Shown here piece after piece: positions 38,525 to 51,770 of a stretch of 64,000 bases of DNA. The notes under the pieces are model-generated. The model was given only the letters and a program-made list of their open reading frames with translations, was not told the origin of the DNA and ran no database searches. Origin of the DNA: Patescibacteria group bacterium (GTDB taxonomy: Bacteria; Omnitrophota; Gorgyraeia; Gygaellales; Profunditerraquicolaceae). The DNA lies in NCBI GenBank assembly GCA_035506195.1, contig DATJPV010000023.1, positions 1,050 to 65,049 of the forward strand. Direction: 5' to 3'. Positions within the stretch are counted from its first letter, which is position 1. Each line of letters starts with the position of its first letter. A program made the translations under genes and the position numbers.

Positions 38525-38575
38525 TAAAAAAATGACAGTCCTTATTGCGTGCCTACGCACGCAATAAGGACTGTC
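38525..38575 (-). terminator. rho-independent terminator after the major pilin gene
   Basis: Perfect 19-bp stem GACAGTCCTTATTGCGTGC / GCACGCAATAAGGACTGTC with a 4-nt loop, followed on the minus strand by TTTTTTT. Confidence 0.8.
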
Positions 38576-38595
38576 TCCGAGCTTGCACAAAACAA

Positions 38596-39024
38596 TTAAT
38601 AACCGCCAGATCCTCCCCACGTATCAACACCCGTGCTCAGGACCGATGTCAACTGGACGTCTCCAGCAGTTGATGCCTGCGGGAGTTTTCCACCAGCTGT
38701 ACAACGTGTTGCTACGCCGGTAACGTTTGTTGCAGCCGAAGTTACCGAATAGCTGAACCAATGCGAGGCGCGGCAAGCGCTGGGAATCTGATCGGCATTG
38801 GTACCGATATGGGCAGTAGAAGCCCCGGTTCCAAAACTGGCGGTGCTACCGAATTCCAAATAATATCCCGCCGATAGCTTCCTGATGTCGCCCAAAATAG
38901 CCTTGGCTTCTGCACCACGAGATTTCTCGATCATTCTGGCATATTGCGTGAAACCGAGGATCGCCAACACGCCCAAAATGATAATAACTACGATCAACTC
39001 GAGCAACGTAAAACCTTTTTTCAT
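38596..39024 (-). CDS. pilA: major type IVa pilin (PilA-like)
   Basis: The track ORF is N-extended. ATG 39024 follows AAAAGGAGGAGACAAC. MKKG|FTLLELIVVIIILGVLAILGF prepilin signature. 142 aa. Flanked by its own consensus promoter and a strong terminator. Confidence 0.85.
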   Translation of the reverse strand: MKKGFTLLELIVVIIILGVLAILGFTQYARMIEKSRGAEAKAILGDIRKLSAGYYLEFGSTASFGTGASTAHIGTNADQIPSACRASHWFSYSVTSAATNVTGVATRCTAGGKLPQASTAGDVQLTSVLSTGVDTWGGSGGY

Positions 39025-39167
39025 GTTGTCTCCTCCTTTTTTATTATTAAACCTGTGATTCATTTGATTCATTTTTTGTTTCTCGGAAAATTTTGATTTC
39101 GGTTATAGATGTGCTGCCTGTATCTATAGAGCCTGCCTTTACCACCCCCTTTCATGCTTCTGTTCAA

Positions 39168-39196
39168 ACTATATCACAAAATACCAATGCTGTCAA
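39168..39196 (-). promoter_or_regulatory. consensus sigma70 promoter with extended -10 for the major pilin (TTGACA-17-TGATATAGT)
   Basis: Minus strand reads TTGACA-GCATTGGTATTTTGTGA-TATAGT. It begins about 20 nt after the pilC stop. The predicted leader is about 135 nt. Confidence 0.55.
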
Positions 39197-39214
39197 CAAG
39201 TTAGCAAAGAATTA

Positions 39215-40456
39215 CTATGACCCTCCGATCTTGGAAATCTGGAAGATAGGCAAGAACATCCCAACGACCATAACGCCGATAACCAGACCCATGAAAATAA
39301 GCATGAGCGGTTCGAACATCGCGGTAAACCTCGTCAAGAACGTCTCGACGTACTCTTGATAAAACGTATTTACTTTTTTGAACATCTGCGATAGCTCGCC
39401 GATCTCTTCTCCGATCGAAACCATCTGGACGAACATCGGCTCGAAAAAACCGCTTTTCTCCAGCGGCTGGCTCAGGGGTTTGCCTTCCCGCACGTCGTCT
39501 TTTATTTTGCGGATGATGTCTCCGACGATCAGATTACCGACGCTGCGTTCGGCGATCTCAAGAGAATAAAGGATAGGCACGCCGCTTTCAACCAGCGTAG
39601 ACATCTCTGATGAGAACCTTTCCAGTATGAGCGCATGAAAAAATTCACCCAACACCGGCATGTCGAACTTAAAACGCTCCCACTGACGCCGCCCGTCGCC
39701 GCTGCGCGTGTATCTCCGGAAAAGAAAGAACAGGACCACAGAGCCTCCTATGCCGACCAACAAATAGTGCCTGAGAAAACTACTCACCGAAAGAAGTATC
39801 TTGGTGAGCGCAGGCAGCTCGACGTTGAACCCTTTGAATAATTCGGCAAACGTAGGAATAATTTTGACCGATAAAAACAAAAGCGCCCCTAAACCGGCAA
39901 CGGTAAGTATGACAGGATAGACTAACGCGGAAACCACCTTCCGCCTAAAGGCTTCCATCCTCTCCAGGTAATTTGCGAGGCGGCTCAATATGATTGCCAA
40001 GTTTCCGGAAGCCTCACCGCTCTCTACGAGGTTAACCCATAATTCGTTAAACACCTTAGGGTGTTTTGCCATCGTTTCATGAAGGCTGATACCGGCCTCC
40101 ATGTTGCGCTGTAGGTCTCTCATTACCACCTGGAGCTTGCGGCTGGAAACCTGCTGCGAAATAATATCGAGGCTCTTTAAGATCGTCACGCCCGCGCCGA
40201 GCAATGTCGCCAATTGGCGGCAAAAAAGCGTCAGGTCCTCATCCTTGATCCCTGAATGCTGCGGCCTGAATTTCTCCTTCTGCTGCCCGGGCTCTTTAAA
40301 GGCCGGCGCGCCTTCTTTGGGCTCCGAAAGAATGCTGACGACTATCAGATCCTTTGCCTGAAGCCTGCCGACGACCTCTTCCTGCGATGAGGCTTCTTCT
40401 ACGCCGGTTATTTTCTTACCGGTGACATCCCTGGCGGTATAAAAGAATCTTGGCAT
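39215..40456 (-). CDS. pilC: type IV pilus inner-membrane platform protein PilC/GspF family
   Basis: 413 aa. Two T2SSF repeats, each with 3 TM. N-terminus MPRFFYTARDVTGKKITG. Confidence 0.9.
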   Translation of the reverse strand: MPRFFYTARDVTGKKITGVEEASSQEEVVGRLQAKDLIVVSILSEPKEGAPAFKEPGQQKEKFRPQHSGIKDEDLTLFCRQLATLLGAGVTILKSLDIISQQVSSRKLQVVMRDLQRNMEAGISLHETMAKHPKVFNELWVNLVESGEASGNLAIILSRLANYLERMEAFRRKVVSALVYPVILTVAGLGALLFLSVKIIPTFAELFKGFNVELPALTKILLSVSSFLRHYLLVGIGGSVVLFFLFRRYTRSGDGRRQWERFKFDMPVLGEFFHALILERFSSEMSTLVESGVPILYSLEIAERSVGNLIVGDIIRKIKDDVREGKPLSQPLEKSGFFEPMFVQMVSIGEEIGELSQMFKKVNTFYQEYVETFLTRFTAMFEPLMLIFMGLVIGVMVVGMFLPIFQISKIGGS

Positions 40457-42183
40457 TAATCGGACCCCAACGTAACCGAGAGGGCCTCTTCCAATGAGGT
40501 GAGGCCGTCTTCGACCTTTTTAATTGCCGATTCATACAGTGTTTGCATCCCGTTGTCCCGGGCAACATCCCTGACCCGCTGGAAAGAAGCCCTTTGGTTG
40601 ATCAGGTCCCGTATGGTGTCATTGACTATCATGACCTCGGAGATACAGGCCCTGCCTTTATACCCGAGTTGATTGCACTTGGCGCACCCTTTCGAGCGGT
40701 ATATTAATTCGGTCTTGAGTTTTATGCTCTTGAGCTGTTCGGTAGTAGGCTCATAGGCTTCTTTGCAGTCCGGGCAAAGTTTGCGCAGTAATCTCTGGGC
40801 CACGACCAACAGCAGCGAAGGGGCAATCAGATACGACTCGATACCGATGTCCATAAGGCGCGTTACCGCAGAAGCGGCGTCATTGGTATGCAGAGTGCTT
40901 AATACCAAATGCCCGGTTAACGCCGAACGGATACAGATCTGTGCGGTCTCTAAGTCCCTGACCTCCCCCACCAGCATGATATCCGGGTCCTGGCGTAAAA
41001 AACTTCGCAGGGCGCTGGCAAAAGTCAGGCCTATCTCCGGCTTGACTTGAACCTGGTTGATGCCATCCAGCTTATATTCAACGGGGTCTTCGATGGTGAT
41101 GATGTTTTTCGTGGGGCTCTTTATTTCATTAAGGATCGCATAAAGGGTAGTGGTCTTGCCGCTTCCCGTAGGGCCGGTCAGAAAGATCAGCCCGTAGGGC
41201 ATATTTATCTCCCGGCGTATCTTATCGAGCTGCTTGGAATCAAAACCCATCTGCCCTAGATCCAGGACCACGGAACTGCGGTCCAGTATTCTTAAGACCG
41301 CCTTTTCTCCGTAGATCGTCGGGACGGTAGAAACTCTCAAGTCAATCGGCCGGTCCTCCACCTTGACGAGGAACGCCCCGTCCTGCGGCAGGCGTTTTTC
41401 GGCGATATCCAGCTTACTGAGGATCTTGATACGGGAAACGATCGGTAAATGCAGGTGCCGGGCAGGAGGAGGTATTTCGTACAGCTTGCCATCGATGCGG
41501 TAACGCAGGGATATCTTGTCTTTGAAGGGTTCGATATGTATGTCGGACGCCCTTTCATCGATCGCCTGCCTGATGATCAGATCCACCAATTTTACGACCG
41601 GCGCCTCTTCGGCGCGCGCGATGAGCTTGTCCAGGCTCAGCTCTTGGTCCGGCGGCTCGCCGCTATCCTCTATTTCCTGCGCCGAAGGCAGATCATAGGA
41701 GGCCTCGACCGCCTGTTCCAGCATCTTTGACTTACCGTAAAATTCTTCAATTGCCCGGGTCAGGTCGGATTTAGTAGCGATTACCGGGTTGATCTCGCAG
41801 CCGGTAAGTTTTTTCAAGTTGTCGATAAGGATGAGGTCGAGCGGATCGGCCATGGCCACCGTCAGCGACCGGAGCGTGCGCGATAGGGGAAGCACCAGGT
41901 TCTTGAGGGCAAAATCCTGCGGGATAAAATGCTCCAGGTCCTGATCCGTTGCCGGGCGCAGCATACCGGTGCCCAGAGAAAAATAAGGTATGCCCAGCTG
42001 CTTTCCGAGCACCGCCACGAGCTTGTCTTCCTTGACGATGCCCAGTTTTATGAGAAGCTCTCCCAGGCGGCCGCCCTCCTGCCTCTGGACGCTGATCGCC
42101 TTCTCAAGCTGCGCCTCGGAGACGATGCCTTCCTTTACTAAAAGCTCGCCTAGTTTTAAATATTTCTCTTTGTTATGCGGCAT
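40456..42183 (-). CDS. pilB: type IV pilus assembly ATPase PilB/GspE family
   Basis: 575 aa. N-terminal GSPII_E_N-like domain, Walker A LTGPTGSGKTTTLYA, tetracysteine CPDC...CAKC motif. Confidence 0.9.
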   Translation of the reverse strand: MPHNKEKYLKLGELLVKEGIVSEAQLEKAISVQRQEGGRLGELLIKLGIVKEDKLVAVLGKQLGIPYFSLGTGMLRPATDQDLEHFIPQDFALKNLVLPLSRTLRSLTVAMADPLDLILIDNLKKLTGCEINPVIATKSDLTRAIEEFYGKSKMLEQAVEASYDLPSAQEIEDSGEPPDQELSLDKLIARAEEAPVVKLVDLIIRQAIDERASDIHIEPFKDKISLRYRIDGKLYEIPPPARHLHLPIVSRIKILSKLDIAEKRLPQDGAFLVKVEDRPIDLRVSTVPTIYGEKAVLRILDRSSVVLDLGQMGFDSKQLDKIRREINMPYGLIFLTGPTGSGKTTTLYAILNEIKSPTKNIITIEDPVEYKLDGINQVQVKPEIGLTFASALRSFLRQDPDIMLVGEVRDLETAQICIRSALTGHLVLSTLHTNDAASAVTRLMDIGIESYLIAPSLLLVVAQRLLRKLCPDCKEAYEPTTEQLKSIKLKTELIYRSKGCAKCNQLGYKGRACISEVMIVNDTIRDLINQRASFQRVRDVARDNGMQTLYESAIKKVEDGLTSLEEALSVTLGSD

Positions 42184-42196
42184 GTGTCCTTAGGGA

Positions 42197-43744
42197 TTAC
42201 TGCCACTTTTCGATATTATCCAGGCTCGAATTTATAAGCGACCGGCGGTCGCCCCGTGCCCCCGTGCCCTGCTCTCTTTCGGGAAGCGCAATCTCCCCTG
42301 CCTTGACAAGCTCCATGTTGGAATCCTTGATGATGTGGGGCGTGATAAACACCAGAAGTTCCCTATCCAAATCGATAGACTGATTCTTGTGCCGGAATAA
42401 TGCGCCCATGATGGGGATATCCCCCAGGAAAGGCACTTTTTTACTGACTATCTCCTTATCCGTATGGATCAAGCCTCCGACCACCACCGTGTCTCCGTCC
42501 TTGACCTTAACGATGGATTTGCTGGCCCTGACCTCGGCATCTGCCTGCGTGGCGGCCAAGGGGCTGACGGAAGTAACGCTCGACTTGGGGTTGATCACCA
42601 TGGTGATCTCGCCGGTTTCCGGGTTGACCTGGGGAGTGACTCTTAAATAAATACCCACCCCTTCGGGGGTAAGCTTAAGGTCTGTCGACCGTATATATTC
42701 GGTAGCGGTCGATTGGCCGGCGCTCGTAGAGTTGGTAGTCTCCTTCTTGCCCACCACCTCGTCTCGGGTGATGGAGATCTCCGCGGTTTCGTTGTTCAAA
42801 GTCAACAGCTTCGGCCGGGCCAAATATTTCACGTCGTTCTGCGTATGCAGAAGGTCCATGACTATCTGGTATGATGCGCTCGTGCCGTCTAGCTTAGATG
42901 TGTTAAGGCTTATGGATCCGGCCCCGCTTGTCGTGCTGCCGCCGGTGCCGGTTCCGGTTGAGCTGTCGAAATTACTCCATTTTCCGAAAGGAAACGGGAA
43001 CCGCGTAGGGGCGGTGGCACCGGTCAATACCATCGTAAACGGCGACTGGCTGTATTCAAACCCCATCTTATCAACCACGTTCTTGGAGACATCCAGGATC
43101 TCGACTTCAATGAGTACCTGAGAAACGGGGACATCCAATAAAGCAATGGTCTTCTCGATCAAAGGCATGCGGCTGGGTACCTCGGTAACTACCAGGCTGT
43201 TCGTGCGGTAATCCTCGATCACCGAGCCCTGAGCAGAAAGAAGTTTCTGGATGGTATTGGTAAGGCAGGCGGTATCTTTTTCTTTGTTGGCGGCGCCGGC
43301 ATTCATGCCCGTCACGCTGACCTGCGACATTTCCTGCCTGACTGCGGATGTCACCACCGAAGCATGCTTCAGAGGGAACACCTTGGTGACCGTGTCTGCC
43401 TGAGGCTTACCCCAGTCCTTGACTACGATGATATTTGATTCCTCATACAAGTCATAGGAAAGGTTATTGGCTTTAAAGAGCTTATCTACCACCTCCTTGA
43501 GCGGCACATTATCCAGGAAAAGGGTGATCTTGCGGTCCTGGACCGCTTCGGAAGCGATGAAATTAAAGCCCGACTGAACGGAAAGTATCTTAAGCACATC
43601 CTTCAGGCTGGCGTTCTGAAAATCCATGGACACGTTTATCGCGGACACGTCGGAGAACGCGTCTACCGCCGCCTCCAGCCGCGGAAACGCTATCATCGTA
43701 AAAAGAGCCGCTGCTATTGCCACGCTCCTAATGTTCTTTCTCAT
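42197..43744 (-). CDS. pilQ: secretin (PilQ/GspD family)
   Basis: 515 aa. Signal peptide, N-domains, and a C-terminal secretin domain (VVVGGLIHTDKEIVSKKVPFLGDIPIMGALFRHKN...LLVFITPHII). Confidence 0.88.
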   Translation of the reverse strand: MRKNIRSVAIAAALFTMIAFPRLEAAVDAFSDVSAINVSMDFQNASLKDVLKILSVQSGFNFIASEAVQDRKITLFLDNVPLKEVVDKLFKANNLSYDLYEESNIIVVKDWGKPQADTVTKVFPLKHASVVTSAVRQEMSQVSVTGMNAGAANKEKDTACLTNTIQKLLSAQGSVIEDYRTNSLVVTEVPSRMPLIEKTIALLDVPVSQVLIEVEILDVSKNVVDKMGFEYSQSPFTMVLTGATAPTRFPFPFGKWSNFDSSTGTGTGGSTTSGAGSISLNTSKLDGTSASYQIVMDLLHTQNDVKYLARPKLLTLNNETAEISITRDEVVGKKETTNSTSAGQSTATEYIRSTDLKLTPEGVGIYLRVTPQVNPETGEITMVINPKSSVTSVSPLAATQADAEVRASKSIVKVKDGDTVVVGGLIHTDKEIVSKKVPFLGDIPIMGALFRHKNQSIDLDRELLVFITPHIIKDSNMELVKAGEIALPEREQGTGARGDRRSLINSSLDNIEKWQ

Positions 43745-44264
43745 CAGTTCCTCCTTTTGCTTTACGCGCTATATGTGCTAAGCTTGCCTGAGTAGGAGAA
43801 AGCACGTCATAGGTACGATTATTAAATGATACGGTTATGCCGTCTTTATTGATCGTTTCGACCCGGACCTTGTCCTCGGCGTTGGGCCCTCCTACCACTA
43901 TGGTGTCCCCCGCCTTGGCTACCTGTCCGTTGACGATTACCTGAGGAAATTTGCCGCCCCACATAATGCCTTCAATGGTCACGTTCGGCAAAGGCTTATC
44001 GACTTTCTCGTCTTTCTTTGTTTCGACGACCGGCTGCTCGTTCTTGCGGATACGCGCCCGAAAAGGATCCTTGAGGCCTTCTGCCTTATACGTCAGCGCT
44101 GCCTGGTCGGCTGCCGGGGGAGCCGGGTTGGCGGCAGTTTTTTCCGCTGGCAAGAAACGTTTGGTGTCTTGCGCAAACGATTCCGCCCCTGCCCCCGTAA
44201 CGATCACCGGGACAGCCACGCAACACACCGCCAATAGCGTCTTAAGCCGGTTATGCATCGTCAA
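43728..44264 (-). CDS. PilP-like periplasmic pilus-assembly protein (tentative)
   Basis: 178 aa. Signal peptide, Pro/Ala-rich linker, C-terminal beta-rich domain. Position between pilO and the secretin. Confidence 0.45.
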   Translation of the reverse strand: MTMHNRLKTLLAVCCVAVPVIVTGAGAESFAQDTKRFLPAEKTAANPAPPAADQAALTYKAEGLKDPFRARIRKNEQPVVETKKDEKVDKPLPNVTIEGIMWGGKFPQVIVNGQVAKAGDTIVVGGPNAEDKVRVETINKDGITVSFNNRTYDVLSPTQASLAHIARKAKGGTDEKEH

Positions 44265-44791
44265 TTCTGAAAGAGTAGGGTGGAAATGGTCATTTTCACG
44301 GTCAGTTTTTCGACCAGTTTTTCTCCCTGCAAAAATTCCTGGGGCTTCATCTCCAGCAGATCGACCGAAAACACGCTCGGGTGGCTTTCAAGCTTACTGA
44401 TGAACTTGCCGAGGGCGTGGTAGCTGTCGACCGACACCATGAGCTCAAAAGGGTATTTCGTATAGAGATTAAAGGTGGCCTGTTCCGCCGGCCTGATGGA
44501 AATAATACGTACGGAGTTCTCCTTGGCCACGGCGGCAATCGTATTGAGGGACGTATTCATATCCTTGCCGTTGACGGTTTTCTTCAAAGCGCTTATTTTC
44601 TGGTCGATGGCAGTGATCTCTTCAAGGACGACGTTCTTTTTCTCTTCGCTTGTTGCTTTTTCCTTTAGGGCGGCTATTTTCTTGTTTTGCGCATCATAAA
44701 TCCGGAAGGAAAGGAATAGCGCAAGCACCACCAGCGCCACATTGATGATGGTGTTTTTATACTTCGTAATCTGATCGAGCCCTTCTATCAT
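44261..44791 (-). CDS. pilO: PilO-like pilus-assembly protein
   Basis: 176 aa. N-terminal TM, coiled coil, C-terminal domain. Position after pilMN. Confidence 0.6.
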   Translation of the reverse strand: MIEGLDQITKYKNTIINVALVVLALFLSFRIYDAQNKKIAALKEKATSEEKKNVVLEEITAIDQKISALKKTVNGKDMNTSLNTIAAVAKENSVRIISIRPAEQATFNLYTKYPFELMVSVDSYHALGKFISKLESHPSVFSVDLLEMKPQEFLQGEKLVEKLTVKMTISTLLFQN

Positions 44792-44800
44792 GCGTACCCC

Positions 44801-46372
44801 TTAGTTGGGAGAGAACCCCGTACACGAGATCGCGAATTTTGTCGCCGGGACCTCTTCCATTTCTTCGCGGACGATAGACGTGATGCTGATATCCTTAAAA
44901 TATTTGCTGAATGCCGGATTAGCCCTTAAGGCGGCAATAAAAATGTTAACTGCTTCAAATTCCTTTTCGCCATCCTTCAGGTAGGCCTCTCCTTCCAGCA
45001 CGACGGAAACCTTGTTCTCTTCTTTCGTAAAAGCGAAATTTGTCAGCCAGACCCCATCCGGAAGCAGGCTGGGGATAATCTGGAGCTGATCGGTCAGATA
45101 GAGCCGTTTACGCACGAGGCTGTCCATGGCATCCAGCCTCTTTTTAAACTCCGTGCTTACGCCCTTTAAGTCTTCATAGGGGATATTGGGATTTACCGCC
45201 GACACCTGCGGCCGGGCATTCAGGATCCTGTTGAGCTGCTGCTGCAACGGCTGTAGCTGGTAGTAGCCGTAACCGAACACTCCCATGCACAGCAGGATAC
45301 ATCCGATGACGACGCGGGAATCGAGCTTAAAATCAGCTAGGGAGGCAAGCGAAAATTTCTCCGCCGGGGCAGGAACGCCGGGCTCCTTGGCGGTCCTGGT
45401 CTTTGCCCTGGCTGCCAACAGGTCGATTTTGGGGGCGATCTTGACTTTCTTTGCCAAAGAGCAGCCGTAACTTTTCAGGAAGCTCATGCTAAACGCTATA
45501 TCCCGTCCGGTAAAGGGAGCGGTTTCCGCGAACCTGACCGCCAATCCTATTTCCTTGATCAAGGCCTCCAGGTCTGCCCGGGAATCTTCGCTGGCGATGA
45601 CAAAGGTCTTCTCGATATTTTTCGTCGGAAATTTCCGGTCATAATAATCCAAAGAAATGCGGATCTCCGTCTTGAGCTTCTCCAAAATGGTAGCTAGGTC
45701 TATCTTTTCGGTCTGCCCCAGCTCATCCGGCCTGCCGATAAGAGTGATATCGCGGCTGAACAACGGAAAACCGTTATCCAAAACTACGAAATTAACTTCG
45801 TTTTCCTCCTGGAAATCCATACTCATGATCCCGATGGTCCCCTTGTTGCTCATCCTTCCCAGGTCGGTCACTTGCAAAAAACGCAATATGCTGAACATCG
45901 AATACTCAATAGTATTGATTTTGATATCCAGTTGGCTCAAGATCGCTAGGTACTTGCTCAGGACTTCCTTCTTTATGCCGACAAAGAGGATCAGGTTCTT
46001 ATGGCTGCTGCGGTCAAATTGAATCTGGTAGGCCGCGACCAGGTCTTCGACCTTGAATGGTATATATTTCTTCGCCTCGAACATCACGGCCCCGCCCATT
46101 TCTTCGGAAGGCAATGCCGGCAGTTCAAAAGTACGTATGATCAAGTCCCTGCCGGAAAGGGCGATGGAGGCCTCTTGACTGTCGATCTTATGCGCGCGCA
46201 AGGCGTCTTTAAAAAGCGCTACCATCTTAAGTTCGTCAGGCACCTTCTCTTCAAATTCGGGGCCCGAGACGGAAGCGCGGGGTACCTGAATGTTATTCAA
46301 GACCTTCTTGCCGTCAGACTCCAGGATCGTGATGATCTTCGGGCCAAAATAGATTCCAAGCGAATTTTTCAT
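44801..46372 (-). CDS. pilMN: PilM-PilN fusion protein (actin-like ATPase domain plus TM/periplasmic PilN domain)
   Basis: 523 aa. The first ~330 aa are a PilM/FtsA-like fold. A TM segment VIGCILLCMGVFGYGYY follows at ~aa 375, then a PilN-like periplasmic region. Confidence 0.8.
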   Translation of the reverse strand: MKNSLGIYFGPKIITILESDGKKVLNNIQVPRASVSGPEFEEKVPDELKMVALFKDALRAHKIDSQEASIALSGRDLIIRTFELPALPSEEMGGAVMFEAKKYIPFKVEDLVAAYQIQFDRSSHKNLILFVGIKKEVLSKYLAILSQLDIKINTIEYSMFSILRFLQVTDLGRMSNKGTIGIMSMDFQEENEVNFVVLDNGFPLFSRDITLIGRPDELGQTEKIDLATILEKLKTEIRISLDYYDRKFPTKNIEKTFVIASEDSRADLEALIKEIGLAVRFAETAPFTGRDIAFSMSFLKSYGCSLAKKVKIAPKIDLLAARAKTRTAKEPGVPAPAEKFSLASLADFKLDSRVVIGCILLCMGVFGYGYYQLQPLQQQLNRILNARPQVSAVNPNIPYEDLKGVSTEFKKRLDAMDSLVRKRLYLTDQLQIIPSLLPDGVWLTNFAFTKEENKVSVVLEGEAYLKDGEKEFEAVNIFIAALRANPAFSKYFKDISITSIVREEMEEVPATKFAISCTGFSPN

Positions 46373-46560
46373 TGTCCTTCCCCGGGTTGCGACAGACGCC
46401 TGCGGCTCTTAAGCCAGGCATCTATATCCCGCCTGTCAAATCTCCATACTCCGCCTACTTTGATACCGGAAATTTTGCGCTGGGAAAGCCAGTTGTAGAT
46501 AGTCTGCTTGCGTAACCGCAGATAATCTGCCAACTCATCGATATCCATCAATCTCGACAT
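46369..46560 (-). CDS. excisionase/MerR-superfamily helix-turn-helix DNA-binding protein, first gene of the pil operon
   Basis: 63 aa; DIDELADYLRLRKQTIYNWLSQRKISGIKVGGVWRFDRRDIDAWL matches the excisionase-family HTH pattern. Its stop overlaps the pilMN start (ATGA). Confidence 0.75.
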   Translation of the reverse strand: MSRLMDIDELADYLRLRKQTIYNWLSQRKISGIKVGGVWRFDRRDIDAWLKSRRRLSQPGEGQ

Positions 46561-46599
46561 GAAGCTTTACCTTTCTTTACGTAAAACACAACCGTGTTA

Positions 46600-46667
46600 A
46601 TTAGAACATAAAAGTTTACTTTTGTCAACTATTTTTTTACTTAAACTTACTTAAACTTACTTAGATT
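46600..46667 (-). promoter_or_regulatory. AT-rich promoter region with TTGACA box and 10-bp direct repeats (TTACTTAAAC x2.8) upstream of the HTH/pil operon
   Basis: Minus strand reads ...AAGTAAGTTTAAGTAAGTTTAAGTAAAAAAATAG-TTGACA-AAAGTAAACTTTTATGT-TCTAAT. The repeats at 46638-46667 sit just upstream of the -35. Confidence 0.4.
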
Positions 46668-46742
46668 TAAATTTCGTTATTATAACTAATTGCAACTATA
46701 GATGTTAGATAGAGGCTTTTAAGGAAGGGGAAGGTTTAAATA

Positions 46743-47111
46743 TTAAAGTTGAAACTGGTAGTTGATATCGACAGTGATGACTTTGGCGTTCGGCACGCCG
46801 GAGACGGGGGTACCAATAGCGGGAGCATCGGCAATATTAATGTCTACGCGATAGGGGATATCGCTGTCATTAGCGGTACAGCCGGAAGCGCAGAGAGTAC
46901 GATTGCCTGTGCCCCAGTTCAAATACCGCAACCCATCGATTGCCAGATTTATACCGGCAATCCCTGCGTAATAGGCACGCGCTCTTTCTATGCGATGGCT
47001 GGTAATCCGGGATTGGTTGGAAACAAGGTTGGCAACAATGAATGCCAGAGTTAACACCGTTATAAGCATGGCTATTACAACCGTTAACGCCGCAGCCTTG
47101 CGAGTACGCAT
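46743..47111 (-). CDS. PilX-N-like minor pilin / pilus-associated protein (tentative)
   Basis: 122 aa. N-terminal hydrophobic helix RKAAALTVVIAMLITVLTLAFIVANL followed by RARAYYAGIAG, reminiscent of PilX/GspK N-domains. No E+5. Confidence 0.4.
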   Translation of the reverse strand: MRTRKAAALTVVIAMLITVLTLAFIVANLVSNQSRITSHRIERARAYYAGIAGINLAIDGLRYLNWGTGNRTLCASGCTANDSDIPYRVDINIADAPAIGTPVSGVPNAKVITVDINYQFQL

Positions 47112-47114
47112 ATG

Positions 47115-47321
47115 TCAGACGTACCTTCTCAGGCTTACCTTATAATCGGCTTCGGTTTGCTGCAGCACCACATGCCCTTCCCTGGCAAGCCACCCCAAGC
47201 TCATCAATACGGTGTCGCGCGGTTTTTCAATCCCCGAAACCAACGCTGAAAGCGTAACCTCACCGTGCTGGTCTAAAAAGTGCCAGATATCGCCTGCAAC
47301 AATACCTATCTCTGTAATCAT
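47115..47321 (-). CDS. small winged-helix-like protein (hypothetical)
   Basis: 68 aa. Helix-turn-helix-plus-wing pattern (GEVTLSALVSGIEKPRDTVLMSLGWLAREGHVVL...YKVSL). Own promoter and strong SD AGGGAGGG. Its stop lies 3 nt before the PilX-like start. Confidence 0.45.
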   Translation of the reverse strand: MITEIGIVAGDIWHFLDQHGEVTLSALVSGIEKPRDTVLMSLGWLAREGHVVLQQTEADYKVSLRRYV

Positions 47322-47341
47322 CGTTATCCCTCCCTATAATT

Positions 47342-47370
47342 ATTTTATAGATAACCCTATGTGCTGTCAA
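47342..47370 (-). promoter_or_regulatory. sigma70-type promoter (TTGACA-17-TAAAAT) for the winged-helix gene
   Basis: Minus strand reads TTGACA-GCACATAGGGTTATCTA-TAAAAT, then TATAGGGAGGGATAACG-ATG. Confidence 0.5.
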
Positions 47371-47399
47371 CTGTTTTTATAGGCTGCCCCCCGGCTAGG

Positions 47400-47621
47400 C
47401 TATTTTTTGTTGTAACTGCCGCAGCGGGGACAGACCGAAATAACGTCTTCCTTTGTGTTTACGTACGTATACGTACAGACGGAACAAAACCAAATAAAGC
47501 GGGAATCCAGGGACAGGTCTTTGTCTTTCTGCTTTTTTTCGAACAACCACGCCAGGAACACGCACACTAAGAATAAGAGCGTTGACAACGCGATAGCCAC
47601 GGAAAAATCGATGCTGATCAT
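47400..47621 (-). CDS. small membrane protein with C-terminal zinc-ribbon (hypothetical)
   Basis: 73 aa. One TM (VAIALSTLLFLVCVFLAWLF), then CSVC...13 residues...CPRC. Confidence 0.5.
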   Translation of the reverse strand: MISIDFSVAIALSTLLFLVCVFLAWLFEKKQKDKDLSLDSRFIWFCSVCTYTYVNTKEDVISVCPRCGSYNKK

Positions 47622-47625
47622 ACGA

Positions 47626-48261
47626 TTATTTCTGAGGAGACAGCTCTATTTTGACCGTCTGCCACGCATCCAGGGGAAGGTTTCTTTGCTGCATAAAAAG
47701 GTAACGGCCCAGATATCGCATGGTCAACAGGTCCGCTTCCAGATTGCCGGATGATATCTTTCTCTTGACGATCAATGCGTTGGTCTTCGAATCGGCAGGG
47801 GATGCCTTCCTAAACATAAGTTCGATATGCACCGCTTGTCGATCCTTGAAATAAAGCGAAAAATTATGCGGCAGAGGCGGATAAAACATGAGTACCGCGC
47901 CTTTTTTGACGGGAGGCGCAGAAGACGCAAGGGACTCGACATATGAAATTTTATCAGCGTTTAAAGACGCCGGCATTGCGTGCGGCTTGACGTAATAATC
48001 GTACGCGCCGGCCATCCGTTGATCAGGCTGACGCAAAAGCCTGGTGTCCGGCTCTGGCGACGGCAATAGCATCTTTAGCGAAGATGGTTTTACCCGGGGG
48101 GCGCGCAGAAAATCAGCGGGTAACCATGACCCCCAGAAAGAAACAGCGGTATAGTTTGCCTTGGGCAGGACGGGATTGAAGGACAGGTTAAAAACTCCCA
48201 GGAGGGTGATATGGCTTAACAAGGAAATAAAAACGCTTTTTTTAAAAAGTTGGCTCATTGC
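47626..48261 (-). CDS. membrane-anchored periplasmic protein downstream of exbBD (possible TonB/TolA-like partner; hypothetical)
   Basis: The track ORF starts at 48309. ATG 48261 (MSQLFKKSVFISLLSHITLLGVF) reduces the overlap with exbD to 7 nt. Single N-terminal TM, Pro-rich stretch. No recognisable TonB C-terminal domain. Confidence 0.35.
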   Translation of the reverse strand, partial: AMSQLFKKSVFISLLSHITLLGVFNLSFNPVLPKANYTAVSFWGSWLPADFLRAPRVKPSSLKMLLPSPEPDTRLLRQPDQRMAGAYDYYVKPHAMPASLNADKISYVESLASSAPPVKKGAVLMFYPPLPHNFSLYFKDRQAVHIELMFRKASPADSKTNALIVKRKISSGNLEADLLTMRYLGRYLFMQQRNLPLDAWQTVKIELSPQK

Positions 48262-48659
48262 TCTTGATTGGTCGCTATGTTGACGTGGCTGACGTTGAGC
48301 TGGCGGCACATATCCCAGACCTGCACCGCTGCCCCCAGTGATGTGCGTTTATCCGCTTTGATGAGGACGGACACATCCCGCTTAGCCACCTGCCGCAAGA
48401 GGCCCTCCAGTTCCTGGGCAGTCATGGCTTTGCCGTTGACATAGATGACGTTCTCGGCGGAGATGGCGATATCGATATTATCATATTTGACGACTTCGCT
48501 GGTGACCGCCTTAGGCAAATGTATCGCAATGCCCGGCTGCATGACAAAACTGGAAGTAAGCATGAAAAAAATCAACAGCAGGAATACCATATCGATGAGC
48601 GGGGCAATGTCTATTTGTTTGAGACCATGCTCAAGCTCCACATGCCGCTTGAAACGCAT
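48255..48659 (-). CDS. exbD: ExbD/TolR family biopolymer transport protein
   Basis: 134 aa; IDIAPLIDMVFLLLIFFM TM plus periplasmic domain, typical ExbD/TolR. Confidence 0.85.
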   Translation of the reverse strand: MRFKRHVELEHGLKQIDIAPLIDMVFLLLIFFMLTSSFVMQPGIAIHLPKAVTSEVVKYDNIDIAISAENVIYVNGKAMTAQELEGLLRQVAKRDVSVLIKADKRTSLGAAVQVWDMCRQLNVSHVNIATNQEQ

Positions 48660-48667
48660 GTATCCTC

Positions 48668-49300
48668 CTACTCCGTAAGGAAGTTGACCAATTCTGTCGC
48701 TGCTTTTTCCATTTCCAGGATCAGGGTATTGATCCGGCTCACCAAATAATTATAGGCTACAAACGTGGGTATCGCCACGATCAAGCCGGCTACGGTCGTC
48801 AGTAGCGCCTCCCAGATACCCCCTGCCAGGTCGCCGGGAGAAACGGGGTGAAAACTGGTAGCCTTAGCCTGAATGACCTGGAAACACCTGACCATCCCGG
48901 TCACTGTCCCCAATAAGCCGAGCAGCGGCGATATGTGCGCAATGGTAGCCAGGGCGGTAAGGTTCTTCTCAAGCTTCGGCACCTCATACAGGGAGGCATC
49001 TTCGATCGCCTCCTTTATCTGGGGACGAGGCCTGTCGTATTTGAGGATACCTGCCTTGAGTATGTGCGAGATCGGACTTTTGGTCTTATCGCAGGTTGCC
49101 AGCGCCTCTTTTATCTGGTGATGTTTCATCTTATCCAGGATCGTCGCCAGAAACTCAGCCGTATCTATCCTTATCTTGTGCAGGTACCAGAACTTATCCA
49201 AGATTATCGCCATGGCAAAGATCGAACAAAACAGTATCGGCCACATTACCGGCCCGCCTGCAAGAAACGTCTGCCACAACCCCATCTTGTACAAATCCAT
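48668..49300 (-). CDS. exbB: MotA/TolQ/ExbB proton-channel family protein
   Basis: 210 aa. 3 TM with the conserved ISPLLGLLGTVTGM...AL.TT..GL segment. Confidence 0.85.
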   Translation of the reverse strand: MDLYKMGLWQTFLAGGPVMWPILFCSIFAMAIILDKFWYLHKIRIDTAEFLATILDKMKHHQIKEALATCDKTKSPISHILKAGILKYDRPRPQIKEAIEDASLYEVPKLEKNLTALATIAHISPLLGLLGTVTGMVRCFQVIQAKATSFHPVSPGDLAGGIWEALLTTVAGLIVAIPTFVAYNYLVSRINTLILEMEKAATELVNFLTE

Positions 49301-49301
49301 C

Positions 49302-51770
49302 TTATCCGCCTCCCTTGAGTTTCTGCGCGCCTATCGAATCTATCCGCTCCTGGGCGTATTTCGATTCCGGAGCGCCCATCGCAACGATCTTCTGGTAAAT
49401 CGTAAGTGCCTCCGGGAAATTCCCCTTGCTTTCGTAGATCGAAGCCACCCTCAATAAGGACCTAACGTTCAAATCGCCGTTATCGGGATACAGGTAGGTC
49501 ACCTGCAGATATTCCTGGATCGCTTCATCCGTTTTGCCCTGGGCCTCTCTGGTCTCGGCGATCTTGAACTGAAGGTGCGCCATTTCCTTCACCGGAACCA
49601 GATCCAGGCTTTTACGGTAAAACGCCACTGCATCGTCGTATTTTCCGATTTTGCGGTAAGACTCGGCGATCTTGGGATAAATCAGGTGCGCAAGGTTCGC
49701 ATACTCCTTCAGGACGTCTTGATAGGTACCCAGCGCCAGTTCCATCTGGTTCTGTTTCGCATAGATATCGGCGACGGCAATCAAGGCGGTAGCGGCAAGA
49801 TCGGATTTGGCCTGCTCCCTGACCTTATTGAAGTTGTCCAGCGCCGCCTGGTAGTCGGATTCCTCTTCGTAGATAGAGCCAAGCGCATAGCGGGCATCCG
49901 GCAGAAGGCTGCTATCGGGGAAATCTTTTATCAAAGATAAGAAATACTGCTTTGCCTGTTCTGCATCGTTGTGCCGGTAATAATACTCTCCTAGCCACCA
50001 GATAACCTCCGGGGTAAGCGTTGAAGAAGGATACTTGTCCCGCAGGAGCTTGAACCTTGCCATCGCCTCTTTTTCGTTGCCTGTCTGGTAATAGCAGTCG
50101 GCAATTTCATATTCCGATTTCTGCACCAATTCTGTGTCATTCGGATAGTTCTTGATGATCTCTTTGAAGACCTCGATCGCAGCGGGGAAATCCCCCAGAT
50201 TGAAAAGACTGGTCCCGCACAGGTATGCGGCCTGAGACTTAAGCTTGCTATCCTTGAATTCCCGGGGGAATCTTTCGAAGACTTCCCGACTGGCTTTGTA
50301 ATCTTCGCTTTGAAAATAGCTTAAGCCCAAAGCATAGGAAGCCTCATCAAGAAGTTTCGACTGAGGGAAATTGGTTTTCAAGCTCTGGAATGCGAGGATC
50401 GCGCCCGGATAGTTGCCTGATTTTAGCATCGTCAGCCCCAGCTGATATTGCACGTAATCGCCATACAGGCTGTCTGAATAATCTTTTAGTATCCCATCGT
50501 AGGTCTCGATGGCCTTGGGATAGTCGCCGGCATCCTGATAGGCATCCCCTATTTGGCAGAGGGTGGTGATCTTAATAATCTTGTCTTCGGTGCGCTGGGC
50601 CAGTTTTTGAAATTCTTCTATCGCTTTTTTGAACTCCCCCTCCTTTAGAAAAACCCAGGCCAGACCGTAATGCATCTTATCCACTATCTCGCGGGGCACT
50701 GTGCCGGGAGTCTTCTCCAGCGCCAGGGTATAAATATCTACGGCCTCTTTGTAGTTTCCCGCGTTGTAGAGTACATCGGCTTTGCCCAGATACGCCTGGC
50801 TTAAGACCACCGGATCCGAGGTCGCCGTGATGAGTTCCTCATACAAGGACTTTGCCGCCTCAAGCTGCTTGGTCTCAACCGCCAATATCGCCTTACCCAG
50901 AAGCAGCACCTCGCGGCTTGCCTTTTCCAAGGAGTCGGGGACAACGCCGGCAAACTCAGTCTCGCTTTCCTGGTAGCGCTTGAGCTTCAAGTAAGCCCAC
51001 CCCTTCCCCAGCTGCGAAAGGGAGTGCATCCGTTCATCCTTGGTGCTCAGGATGGCCTTGGCATACTCGTCTATCGACTCATTGAAATTATTCATGTAGT
51101 AATCTGCTTCGGCCAGGTAAAAATACAGGTAGGAAACTTTAGCGGTATCCTTGACATACGTCTTCAGGTACGCCACCGCACTCTCTTTCAACGCCGCATA
51201 TTCCTTGAGATTATAAAGACACTCGATGATCTTGAATTGCGCGTCCTGCACCAGGGCGTCTTTAGGAAAGCGGTTTTCTACGTTTTTGAAATTCGCCAGG
51301 GCGTCCGCAAAAGACTGTTCCTGGAACAGGCACCAGCCAAGGGAATAATATGCGGCCGCCAGATACGAAGACTGCGGAAAATTATCGATGATCTTCTTGT
51401 AGTATTCGGCGGCCTTGGAAAAGTTGTTGCCCCGGAAGTGCACCTCGGCGATCCAATAGTCAACCGCATCCTGAATATCCTTGGCAGCCGGCTGATTCTG
51501 AAGCCCTTCGAACTTGGCCAGGGCCTCCAGGAATTTCCCCTGATGGAAATAGCACTGCCCGGTAAGCAGGCTCGCCTGAGCTGCTAATGTCGAAGCCGGA
51601 TAATTGCTCATAAACCGGTCCAACAACTGCAGGCTCACATCGTAGAAGCCGTCGGCAAAGGCCTTGCGGGCGACAAAAAATGCCTCCTGCTCCTTGGATT
51701 CCTGAGCATACGAGGCACCCATGATCAGTGTTGCGCAAATAATAAGAAGGGAAATGATTCTAACCAGCAT
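49302..51770 (-). CDS. large secreted tetratricopeptide-repeat protein
   Basis: 822 aa. Signal peptide (cleavage near SYA-QE) followed by >15 TPR-like repeats throughout. Confidence 0.7.
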   Translation of the reverse strand: MLVRIISLLIICATLIMGASYAQESKEQEAFFVARKAFADGFYDVSLQLLDRFMSNYPASTLAAQASLLTGQCYFHQGKFLEALAKFEGLQNQPAAKDIQDAVDYWIAEVHFRGNNFSKAAEYYKKIIDNFPQSSYLAAAYYSLGWCLFQEQSFADALANFKNVENRFPKDALVQDAQFKIIECLYNLKEYAALKESAVAYLKTYVKDTAKVSYLYFYLAEADYYMNNFNESIDEYAKAILSTKDERMHSLSQLGKGWAYLKLKRYQESETEFAGVVPDSLEKASREVLLLGKAILAVETKQLEAAKSLYEELITATSDPVVLSQAYLGKADVLYNAGNYKEAVDIYTLALEKTPGTVPREIVDKMHYGLAWVFLKEGEFKKAIEEFQKLAQRTEDKIIKITTLCQIGDAYQDAGDYPKAIETYDGILKDYSDSLYGDYVQYQLGLTMLKSGNYPGAILAFQSLKTNFPQSKLLDEASYALGLSYFQSEDYKASREVFERFPREFKDSKLKSQAAYLCGTSLFNLGDFPAAIEVFKEIIKNYPNDTELVQKSEYEIADCYYQTGNEKEAMARFKLLRDKYPSSTLTPEVIWWLGEYYYRHNDAEQAKQYFLSLIKDFPDSSLLPDARYALGSIYEEESDYQAALDNFNKVREQAKSDLAATALIAVADIYAKQNQMELALGTYQDVLKEYANLAHLIYPKIAESYRKIGKYDDAVAFYRKSLDLVPVKEMAHLQFKIAETREAQGKTDEAIQEYLQVTYLYPDNGDLNVRSLLRVASIYESKGNFPEALTIYQKIVAMGAPESKYAQERIDSIGAQKLKGGG

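Follow-up and report, generated by a model that had tools for sequence, protein, structure and literature searches.

A BldC/Xis-like winged-HTH protein encoded at the head of the type IVa pilus assembly operon of Omnitrophota: a conserved candidate autoregulator and its direct-repeat promoter

BldC is a 68-aa MerR-like winged helix-turn-helix (wHTH) protein which lacks the dimerisation and effector domains of MerR; with the wHTH alone it assembles on 9-bp direct repeats into cooperative head-to-tail multimers, and it distorts the DNA (PMC5859096). The Streptomyces protein (PDB 6AMA and 6AMK) is the founder of the BldC family, characterised by a size of about 60-70 aa and by the wHTH only, with neither a coiled-coil nor an effector domain; BldC controls development pleiotropically, and is not embedded in an operon. 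Excisionases are small wHTH monomers as well, which align on direct repeats and bend DNA. Here we describe a protein of 63 aa which has the size and domain layout of the BldC family, referred to as the HTH protein, encoded in a stretch of 64,000 nucleotides of contig DATJPV010000023.1 (the window). Unlike the gene of BldC, the HTH gene heads, and appears to be coupled to, a single machinery operon, the one for the assembly of type IVa pili (T4aP), and in our judgement the HTH protein is probably a repeat-binding autoregulator of this operon in Omnitrophota. These bacteria are uncultivated and mostly ultra-small, and T4aP have been proposed to underlie their attachment, their motility on hosts, and predation or parasitism (PMC10066038). 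All genes and elements of the pilus locus are read on the minus strand, and those on which the argument rests are the following.

46679..46708, minus: second promoter-like site, CTAACA-18-TATAAT, upstream of the repeats (promoter scan, 10/12 matches)
46633..46662, minus: 10-bp-period direct repeats AAGTAAGTTT, AAGTAAGTTT, AAGTAAAAAA, a candidate head-to-tail operator (TRF)
46632..46638, minus: A7 tract between the repeats and the -35, part of the degenerate third repeat (direct reading)
46623..46628, minus: predicted -35 hexamer TTGACA (direct reading and 75-locus alignment)
46598..46609, minus: predicted -10 region ATGTTCTAATTA, read either as TATG(n) extended -10 plus TCTAAT at a 17-bp spacer, or as TAATTA at a 19-bp spacer
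46369..46560, minus: HTH gene, encoding the 63-aa stand-alone wHTH protein MSRLMDIDELADYLRLRKQTIYNWLSQRKISGIKVGGVWRFDRRDIDAWLKSRRRLSQPGEGQ (Pfam PF12728)
46375..46383, minus: purine-rich pilMN Shine-Dalgarno sequence GGGGAAGGA, within the last HTH codons (direct reading)
46369..46372, minus: ATGA stop/start overlap of the HTH gene and pilMN (HTH TGA 46371-46369, pilMN ATG 46372-46370)
44801..46372, minus: pilMN, operon gene 2, encoding a PilM-PilN fusion of 523 aa (PF11104 PilM_2 and PF05137 PilN, both above cut-off)

The initial annotation of the window had described a 63-aa open reading frame overlapping the start of pilMN by ATGA at the head of the pilus assembly operon, a layout confirmed by direct reading. 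The small gene is also conserved upstream of pilM in related genomes. Homologues of PilMN are more than 770, mostly from Omnitrophota, and their identity falls at once to about 50%. The PilMN alignment was used to fetch 80 species-level genome loci, 79 of which include upstream DNA, and in 79/79 of these Omnitrophota loci the HTH gene is found directly upstream of pilMN, on the same strand and in one copy. A more divergent Omnitrophota clade (clade 2) was found via a 63%-identical representative, and here the HTH gene adjoins pilMN in 7/7 look-ups. Identity to the window averages 77% for the HTH protein and 45% for PilMN among the species loci; in clade 2 the corresponding figures are 66-73% and 23-28%. 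The 63-aa open reading frame is a real gene under strong constraint.

Most junctions between the two genes are overlapping (73/79), the shared sequence being a 4-nt ATGA in 56 loci, a 1-nt TAATG in 16 and 8 nt long in the remaining one. Gaps are present at six junctions, one of which coincides with an assembly gap. A GGAG, GAGG or AGGA tetramer starts at -11 from the pilMN ATG 62 times across the 80 junctions (consensus GGaGA.aA.caATG), and the location of this Shine-Dalgarno sequence in the last HTH codons explains the conserved "G-E/D" of an otherwise variable HTH tail. The overlaps, along with the ribosome binding site set within HTH codons, support the view that the HTH gene is translationally coupled to pilMN in the clade of the window. 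In clade 2 the two genes are usually 25-85 nt apart. Coupling, already proposed for the window, is therefore specific to this clade and does not extend to clade 2, whereas adjacency is common to both clades examined.

The HTH protein matches the Pfam profile HTH_17 (PF12728) at residues 4-54, along profile positions 1-51 of 51 (E 2.2e-16, 60.3 bits, cut-off 27), and the TIGR01764 "excise" profile of the excisionase family DNA-binding domain (50.3 bits, cut-off 28.8). Both curated cut-offs are exceeded, and the protein is a member of the HTH_17/TIGR01764 domain family. The highest-scoring named family by sequence, and best NCBIfam match, is MADS MAD1 (NF047737, E 2.4e-20), a small HTH protein which also heads a multi-gene system; the score of 72.5 bits is below the 80-bit equivalog cut-off, and the context is that of type IV pilus (T4P) genes, with no methylation or defence genes adjacent. 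Relatives of the HTH protein at E<=1e-3 are 1410. The best 120 of them are 78-100% identical, and the named organisms in this group are Omnitrophota/Omnitrophica, except for the window's own record ("Patescibacteria group") and P0087 ("Deltaproteobacteria"). The orthologues encoded by the other 78 loci are 70-87% identical, and 21 positions, which map to the recognition helix and the wing, are invariant across the 79 sequences.

An AlphaFold2 model, built on an alignment of database homologues (pLDDT 85.5), displays a beta-H-H-beta-beta-H arrangement: one strand and two helices lead into a wing of two strands, and one helix closes the fold at the C-terminus. No further structural element follows, and the C-terminal tail is variable, with pLDDT < 70. 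BldC is the best structural match. The top hits of a Foldseek search against PDB are the BldC-DNA complexes 6ama and 6amk (TM score on target 0.72-0.80, root-mean-square deviation 1.6-2.1 A, 24-26% identity), followed by RacA and pSK1 Par, then by the excisionases of GIsul2, Pukovnik and RdfS, and then by classical MerR proteins. On the basis of the model, the HTH protein is by fold class a stand-alone BldC/Xis-like wHTH. The base-contacting residues K26 and R30 of BldC align with Q19 and N23 of the HTH protein, both invariant in the 79 sequences, and a Val replaces the wing residue His46 of BldC. Side chains of Gln and Asn prefer adenine, and Q19/N23 would fit an A-rich site. The DNA motifs differ in the two systems, being AATTNNNN(C) for BldC and AAGTAAGT at the HTH promoter.

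Excisionases such as lambda-type Xis, Pukovnik Xis (4J2N), the AlpA-family protein of GIsul2 (8C3T) and RdfS (8DGL) have the HTH_17/TIGR01764 domain in common with the HTH protein, and Pukovnik Xis is the best sequence-level match in PDB (E 0.018-0.04). Classical MerR activators share the N-terminal wHTH fold, HiNmlR, SoxR and CadR being among the fold matches, and their operators lie in the promoter spacer, as does the motif of clade 2 described below. Yet, the HTH protein, with its 63 aa, lacks the dimerisation coiled-coil and the effector domain typical of these proteins. Moreover, the site of classical MerR proteins is palindromic, whereas the repeats at the HTH promoter are direct, and the MerR promoter spacer measures 19-20 bp, as opposed to 17 bp at the HTH promoter in the TG/extended -10 register, though a 19-bp TAATTA register is possible. 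The library of representatives at 50% identity also includes proteins made of 2-5 tandem HTH_17 domains (P0245, P0247, P0252, P0259 and P0266). As an example, P0245 has 231 aa and three HTH_17 domains, P0266 479 aa and five matched stretches. Covalently linked arrays of this type would suit tandem direct-repeat DNA sites.

The HTH gene is preceded by a 182-nt AT-rich gap. A TTGACA box and 10-bp direct repeats had been noticed in this region, and both are present. The program TRF identifies TTACTTAAAC repeated 2.7 times at 46637-46663 with 100% matches. On the coding strand the units are AAGTAAGTTT at 46662-46653, AAGTAAGTTT at 46652-46643, and a degenerate AAGTAAAAAA at 46642-46633. The 17-mer AAGTAAGTNTRAGTAAG is unique in the window, the chance expectation being 0.02. 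The description of the repeats as abutting the -35 has to be corrected: the degenerate third unit runs into the A7 tract, which is followed by TAG and then by TTGACA. The position of the A7 tract resembles that of the proximal UP-element subsite of E. coli promoters, and a consensus AAAAAAAcAC is highly conserved just 5' of TTGACA.

The conservation of the repeats was assessed by aligning loci on TTGACA, matched upstream of the HTH gene in 75 loci; as this hexamer served as the anchor pattern, its presence in the set is by selection. In most of the 75 loci AGTAAG cores are found at -33 and -23 from the start of TTGACA. Alternative layouts (-43/-33, or an extra core at -13) are offset by exactly 10 bp, which means that the helical phase to the promoter is preserved. 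The motif has the same orientation in all anchored loci, and hardly any variation is seen at the G and T positions of AGTAAGT. Repeats and TTGACA are hence kept at fixed, helically phased positions in orthologous promoters, where their absence would have spoken against an operator. Of the tandem AGTAAG-N4-AGTAA, 56 copies belong to the proximal site and 5 lie at most about 130 nt away from this promoter; the anchored loci, about 760 kb in all, show no others. Three more copies reside, at unclassified positions, in loci lacking the TTGACA anchor.

Forty-seven loci carry in addition a distal element, tATTATAATcTAAGTAAGTtTATTATAA, located 60-100 nt upstream of the proximal repeats. It consists of a single AAGTAAGT between inverted arms (TTATAAT-N12-ATTATAA). 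Often tgTATGtcTTAATtt, similar to the main -10 region, comes next. The distal AAGTAAGT is absent in the window, where the TTATAAT arm alone is kept (46679-46684), and the CTAACA-18-TATAAT site matches in position this arm of the relatives. The distal element could act as an additional operator or promoter, or be what is left of a promoter of the clade-2 type. Of 6 distinct clade-2 promoters, 5 have one AAGTAAGTnTATTATAG, exact or with one base changed, inside the spacer of TTGAC(A/G)-17-TnTAAT. To judge from these alignments, the motif stays with the promoter of the HTH gene despite the differing promoter architecture. A metagenome-wide scan for AAGTAAGTNTRAGTAAG returned 120 loci dominated by (AAGT)n microsatellite-like DNA of unrelated organisms, 8 of which have the HTH gene downstream. 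One metagenome contig end (L168, positions ~1-110) hosts at least 6 tandem AAGTAAGTTT/CAGTAAGTTT-like units (TTAAGTAAGTTTAAGTAAGTTTAAGTAAGTTTAAGTAAAATTCAGTAAGTTTAAGTAAAACTCAGTAAG...). No HTH gene is found within reach of these units, and the array might be either an expanded operator array or unrelated satellite DNA.

The repeats are part of a conserved block of 67 nt. The consensus of the loci aligned on TTGACA is taAGTAAGT.TaaGTAAgt.TAtatAAAAAAAcAC followed by TTGACAAaataA.t.t.TTATGtTtTAATTaA, and the base after TTGACA is A in 74/75 loci. Mean pairwise identity is 0.75 in the block, 0.69 in the HTH coding sequence, 0.47 at its third codon positions and 0.31 in an ungapped upstream control. 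As identity is higher in the block than in any of the other three, the pattern indicates that the block is non-coding DNA under strong purifying selection. A search of the intergenic region and 5' untranslated region against Rfam gave no match at E<=1, and the conservation is therefore not explained by a known RNA element.

Assignment of a clean -10 hexamer failed. The TG is present in 75/75 loci. In the 17-bp register (46600-46605, minus, in the window) position -11 is T or C in 75/75 loci, and never A. In the 19-bp register (TAATTA) position -11 is A in 75/75 loci, and position -7 is mostly A rather than T. This ambiguity accounts for the failure of the consensus scanner to detect the promoter, and for its flagging of CTAACA-18-TATAAT instead. 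The non-A at -11 of the 17-bp register looks like a conserved "defect" in an otherwise consensus promoter with an invariant TATG.

With the gene, its conservation and adjacency, the coupling signals, the promoter/repeat block and the fold class documented as above, a plausible scheme may be drawn. Transcription would start at the conserved sigma-70-type promoter, about 33 nt upstream of the HTH ATG. The HTH protein would be made first, and ribosomes ending it would reinitiate at the overlapping pilMN start; regulator and machinery would be produced from one mRNA at a fixed ratio. Monomers of the protein would line up head-to-tail on the 10-bp-phased AAGTAAGT repeats, at about -68 to -40 from the transcription start predicted near 46593. 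Many relatives offer an extra AAGTAAGT copy 60-100 bp upstream, and clade 2 a single copy inside the promoter spacer. The bound protein would bend DNA, feeding back on the operon's own promoter. The mode of repeat recognition of BldC parallels the same-orientation tandem repeats found, with a 10-bp period, at the HTH promoter in at least 56 of the 75 loci, where binding is deduced by analogy. Autoregulation, suggested in the initial annotation, is the best-supported reading: in orthologous promoters the positions of the repeats and of TTGACA are fixed and keep their helical phase, as expected of an operator to which the protein would bind.

Several observations weigh against this scheme. That the HTH protein, and not another protein, would read the repeats is suggested by their co-occurrence and by analogy of fold. 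Recognition helix and motif are both invariant, which leaves no protein-DNA covariation to read. Sequence similarity to BldC is marginal (profile E 0.9-1.3 versus 6ama/6amk, at the 24-26% identity already given), and the repeat period is 9 bp in BldC sites versus 10 bp here. The location of the motif differs by clade, being upstream of the -35 in one and inside the spacer in the other, and may call for more than one mechanism; the motif is missing from one type of clade-2 promoter (L216/L218). The specificity of the motif is gauged within about 820 kb around T4P loci. Finally, the promoter itself is a prediction, as its -10 register is ambiguous and no hexamer can be cleanly assigned.

As to the sign, our preference is for negative feedback. 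A perfect -35, an optimal spacer and a TG motif already make the promoter near-consensus; the degenerate third repeat reaches toward the -35, which would allow extension of a protein filament; the site of clade 2 is within the core promoter. Activation is possible in view of the conserved non-A at -11 and of the strict helical phasing upstream of the -35. In its strongest form, this would make the HTH protein a phylum-wide master on/off switch for the type IVa pili of Omnitrophota, in which an intrinsically defective promoter (with no A at -11, or with a 19-bp spacer) is activated via the DNA distortion imposed by a head-to-tail wHTH filament. We consider such a switch unlikely, though not negligibly so. 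If true, it would amount to MerR-like promoter remodelling without a MerR dimer, and coupling would tie the dose of the regulator to that of the machinery.

Autoregulation has to be weighed against a different assignment of the players, to which we accord a minor though appreciable chance. The HTH protein may be a regulator or a nucleoid-type binder with other targets, pilin or further surface genes for instance, and the AAGTAAGT repeats may be read by another factor, or may form a phased, curved UP-like element contacted by the C-terminal domain of the RNA polymerase alpha subunit. The repeats are in fact A-rich and 10-bp phased, and merge into an A7 tract at the position of a UP subsite, and the link between protein and motif is deduced. 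Yet, the G and T positions of AGTAAGT are near-invariant, whereas a role in curvature or as UP element would tolerate A/T swaps; a plain UP element, one of the two functions originally put forward for the repeats, is unlikely, as not just the A/T content is conserved. Clade 2 keeps the motif inside the spacer rather than at the UP position, and the motif is confined to the HTH gene's own promoter in the surveyed DNA, bar the three unclassified copies. The promoter of the pilin gene in the window has no such motif. A candidate for the other factor exists in clade 1, the clade of the window, where the second gene upstream of the HTH gene encodes another very conserved small wHTH protein, of the DUF2582 family (74% identity). 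No DUF2582 homologue is detectable in the clade-2 loci which keep the motif, and DUF2582 is less likely to be the repeat reader, though it could still play this role in clade 1.

Co-translation and conservation could also reflect a structural partnership, the HTH protein being not a transcription factor but an accessory factor of the cytoplasmic PilM/PilN platform, with a role in protein binding or in assembly. Coupling to pilMN in 92% of clade-1 loci and the invariant adjacency of the two genes are in keeping with this idea, which is nonetheless improbable. The HTH protein is far better conserved than PilMN, the opposite of what is expected of co-evolving partners; its fold and the nearest solved structures are those of DNA-bound wHTH proteins, the invariant residues fall in the recognition helix and wing, and coupling is lost in clade 2.

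A role as a genuine excisionase (recombination directionality factor), or as the HTH component of a mobile or defence module (for instance MADS MAD1), is most improbable for the HTH protein, since the TIGR01764 domain, the excisionases among the fold matches and the sub-threshold MAD1 score are opposed by a fixed position in a chromosomal syntenic block (UvrA/TPR-ExbB-ExbD-...-HTH-PilMNOPQBC) of at least 85 distinct genomes, which is incompatible with a mobile element, and by flanks made of ExbB, ExbD, TonB-like, TPR and T4P genes, with no integrase, recombinase or methyltransferase among the identified neighbours (a few short flanking open reading frames have no family match), nor an att site or mobile-element context. 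Given the same synteny in 79 + 7 loci, the excisionase role is rejected, the coupling to an excision-like event considered in the initial annotation is abandoned, and the "excisionase" label reflects the HTH_17/TIGR01764 domain alone.

The genes which follow pilMN in the window complete the assembly operon.

44261-44791, minus: pilO, 9-nt gap to pilMN
43728-44264, minus: pilP-like gene, 4-nt overlap
42197-43744, minus: pilQ, secretin, 17-nt overlap
40456-42183, minus: pilB, ATPase, 13-nt gap
39215-40456, minus: pilC, platform protein, 1-nt overlap

From pilMN to pilC neighbouring genes either overlap or are at most 13 nt apart, and the co-directional set of PilM, PilN, PilO, PilP-like, PilQ, PilB and PilC identifies a type IVa pilus assembly operon. 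Matches to PilM_2 and PilN, PilO, and Secretin/Secretin_N/STN exceed the profile cut-offs in the window; those to T2SSE/MshEN and T2SSF were recorded in orthologous loci. PilP is recognised weakly, by T2SSB at 20.7 bits, below cut-off. The first pilin gene (38596-39072, minus) comes after pilC, and has its own promoter-like TTGACA-17-TATAGT without the AGTAAG motif. A long perfect hairpin, ggagacagtccttattgcgtgc...gcacgcaataaggactgtc, plus a T-run after the first pilin gene make up a probable terminator (promoter and hairpin regions 39160-39200 and 38530-38580, minus). In view of both signals, the pilin gene is apparently transcribed independently of the assembly operon.

A block of genes on the same strand invariably comes before the T4aP operon, upstream of the HTH gene (46743-51770, minus, in the window; loci L002-L019 and L203-L205 of the set), and the order in relatives is TPR protein-ExbB-ExbD-TonB-like-Zn-ribbon-DUF2582-p122-HTH-PilMN-O-P-Q-B-C. 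The members of the block include an 822-aa TPR/YfiO-like protein, ExbB, ExbD, a TonB-like protein, a 73-aa Zn-ribbon protein and the 122-aa p122, which has a hydrophobic N-terminus and no family match. An energiser of the ExbBD/TonB type is hence syntenic with the pilus machine in both clades examined, and in clade 2 UvrA is located farther upstream of the pilus locus. The DUF2582 winged-HTH protein has 68 aa (47115-47321, minus), and is about 74% identical across clade-1 loci, on par with PilB and ExbB. Its gene is preceded by a near-consensus promoter-like site, TTGACA-17-TAAAAT (47370-47342, minus), and clade-2 loci show no detectable homologue at the corresponding position. The DUF2582 protein could be a second regulator of the region.

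Omnitrophota is by far the prevailing label among the relatives of the HTH protein and PilMN and across all 80 syntenic loci; a few records of metagenome-assembled genomes (MAGs) are labelled otherwise ("uncultured Planctomycetales", "Margulisiibacteriota", "Deltaproteobacteria"). On these grounds the label of the source MAG, "Patescibacteria group bacterium", is probably wrong.

The main Omnitrophota genome papers treat T4aP clusters as symbiosis or predation traits. In the searchable literature on Omnitrophota pili, pilM and excisionase, and on pilM and HTH, no description of the HTH gene, of its coupling or of its promoter was found. Operons headed by a small autoregulator are familiar, and the fold class was already known. 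What is unusual is the extreme conservation of both protein and cis-element in the two clades examined, the direct-repeat candidate operator, and the link to a pilus machine. In fragmentary MAGs of Omnitrophota, the 67-nt block may serve as a genomic marker of the T4aP locus. The HTH protein and its repeats represent a candidate regulator-operator pair conserved across the sampled members of the phylum, which can be tested without culture. If the autoregulation hypothesis is correct, regulation of the BldC type, by a monomeric wHTH protein acting on direct repeats, would reach a new phylum and a new target, a secretion/pilus machine.

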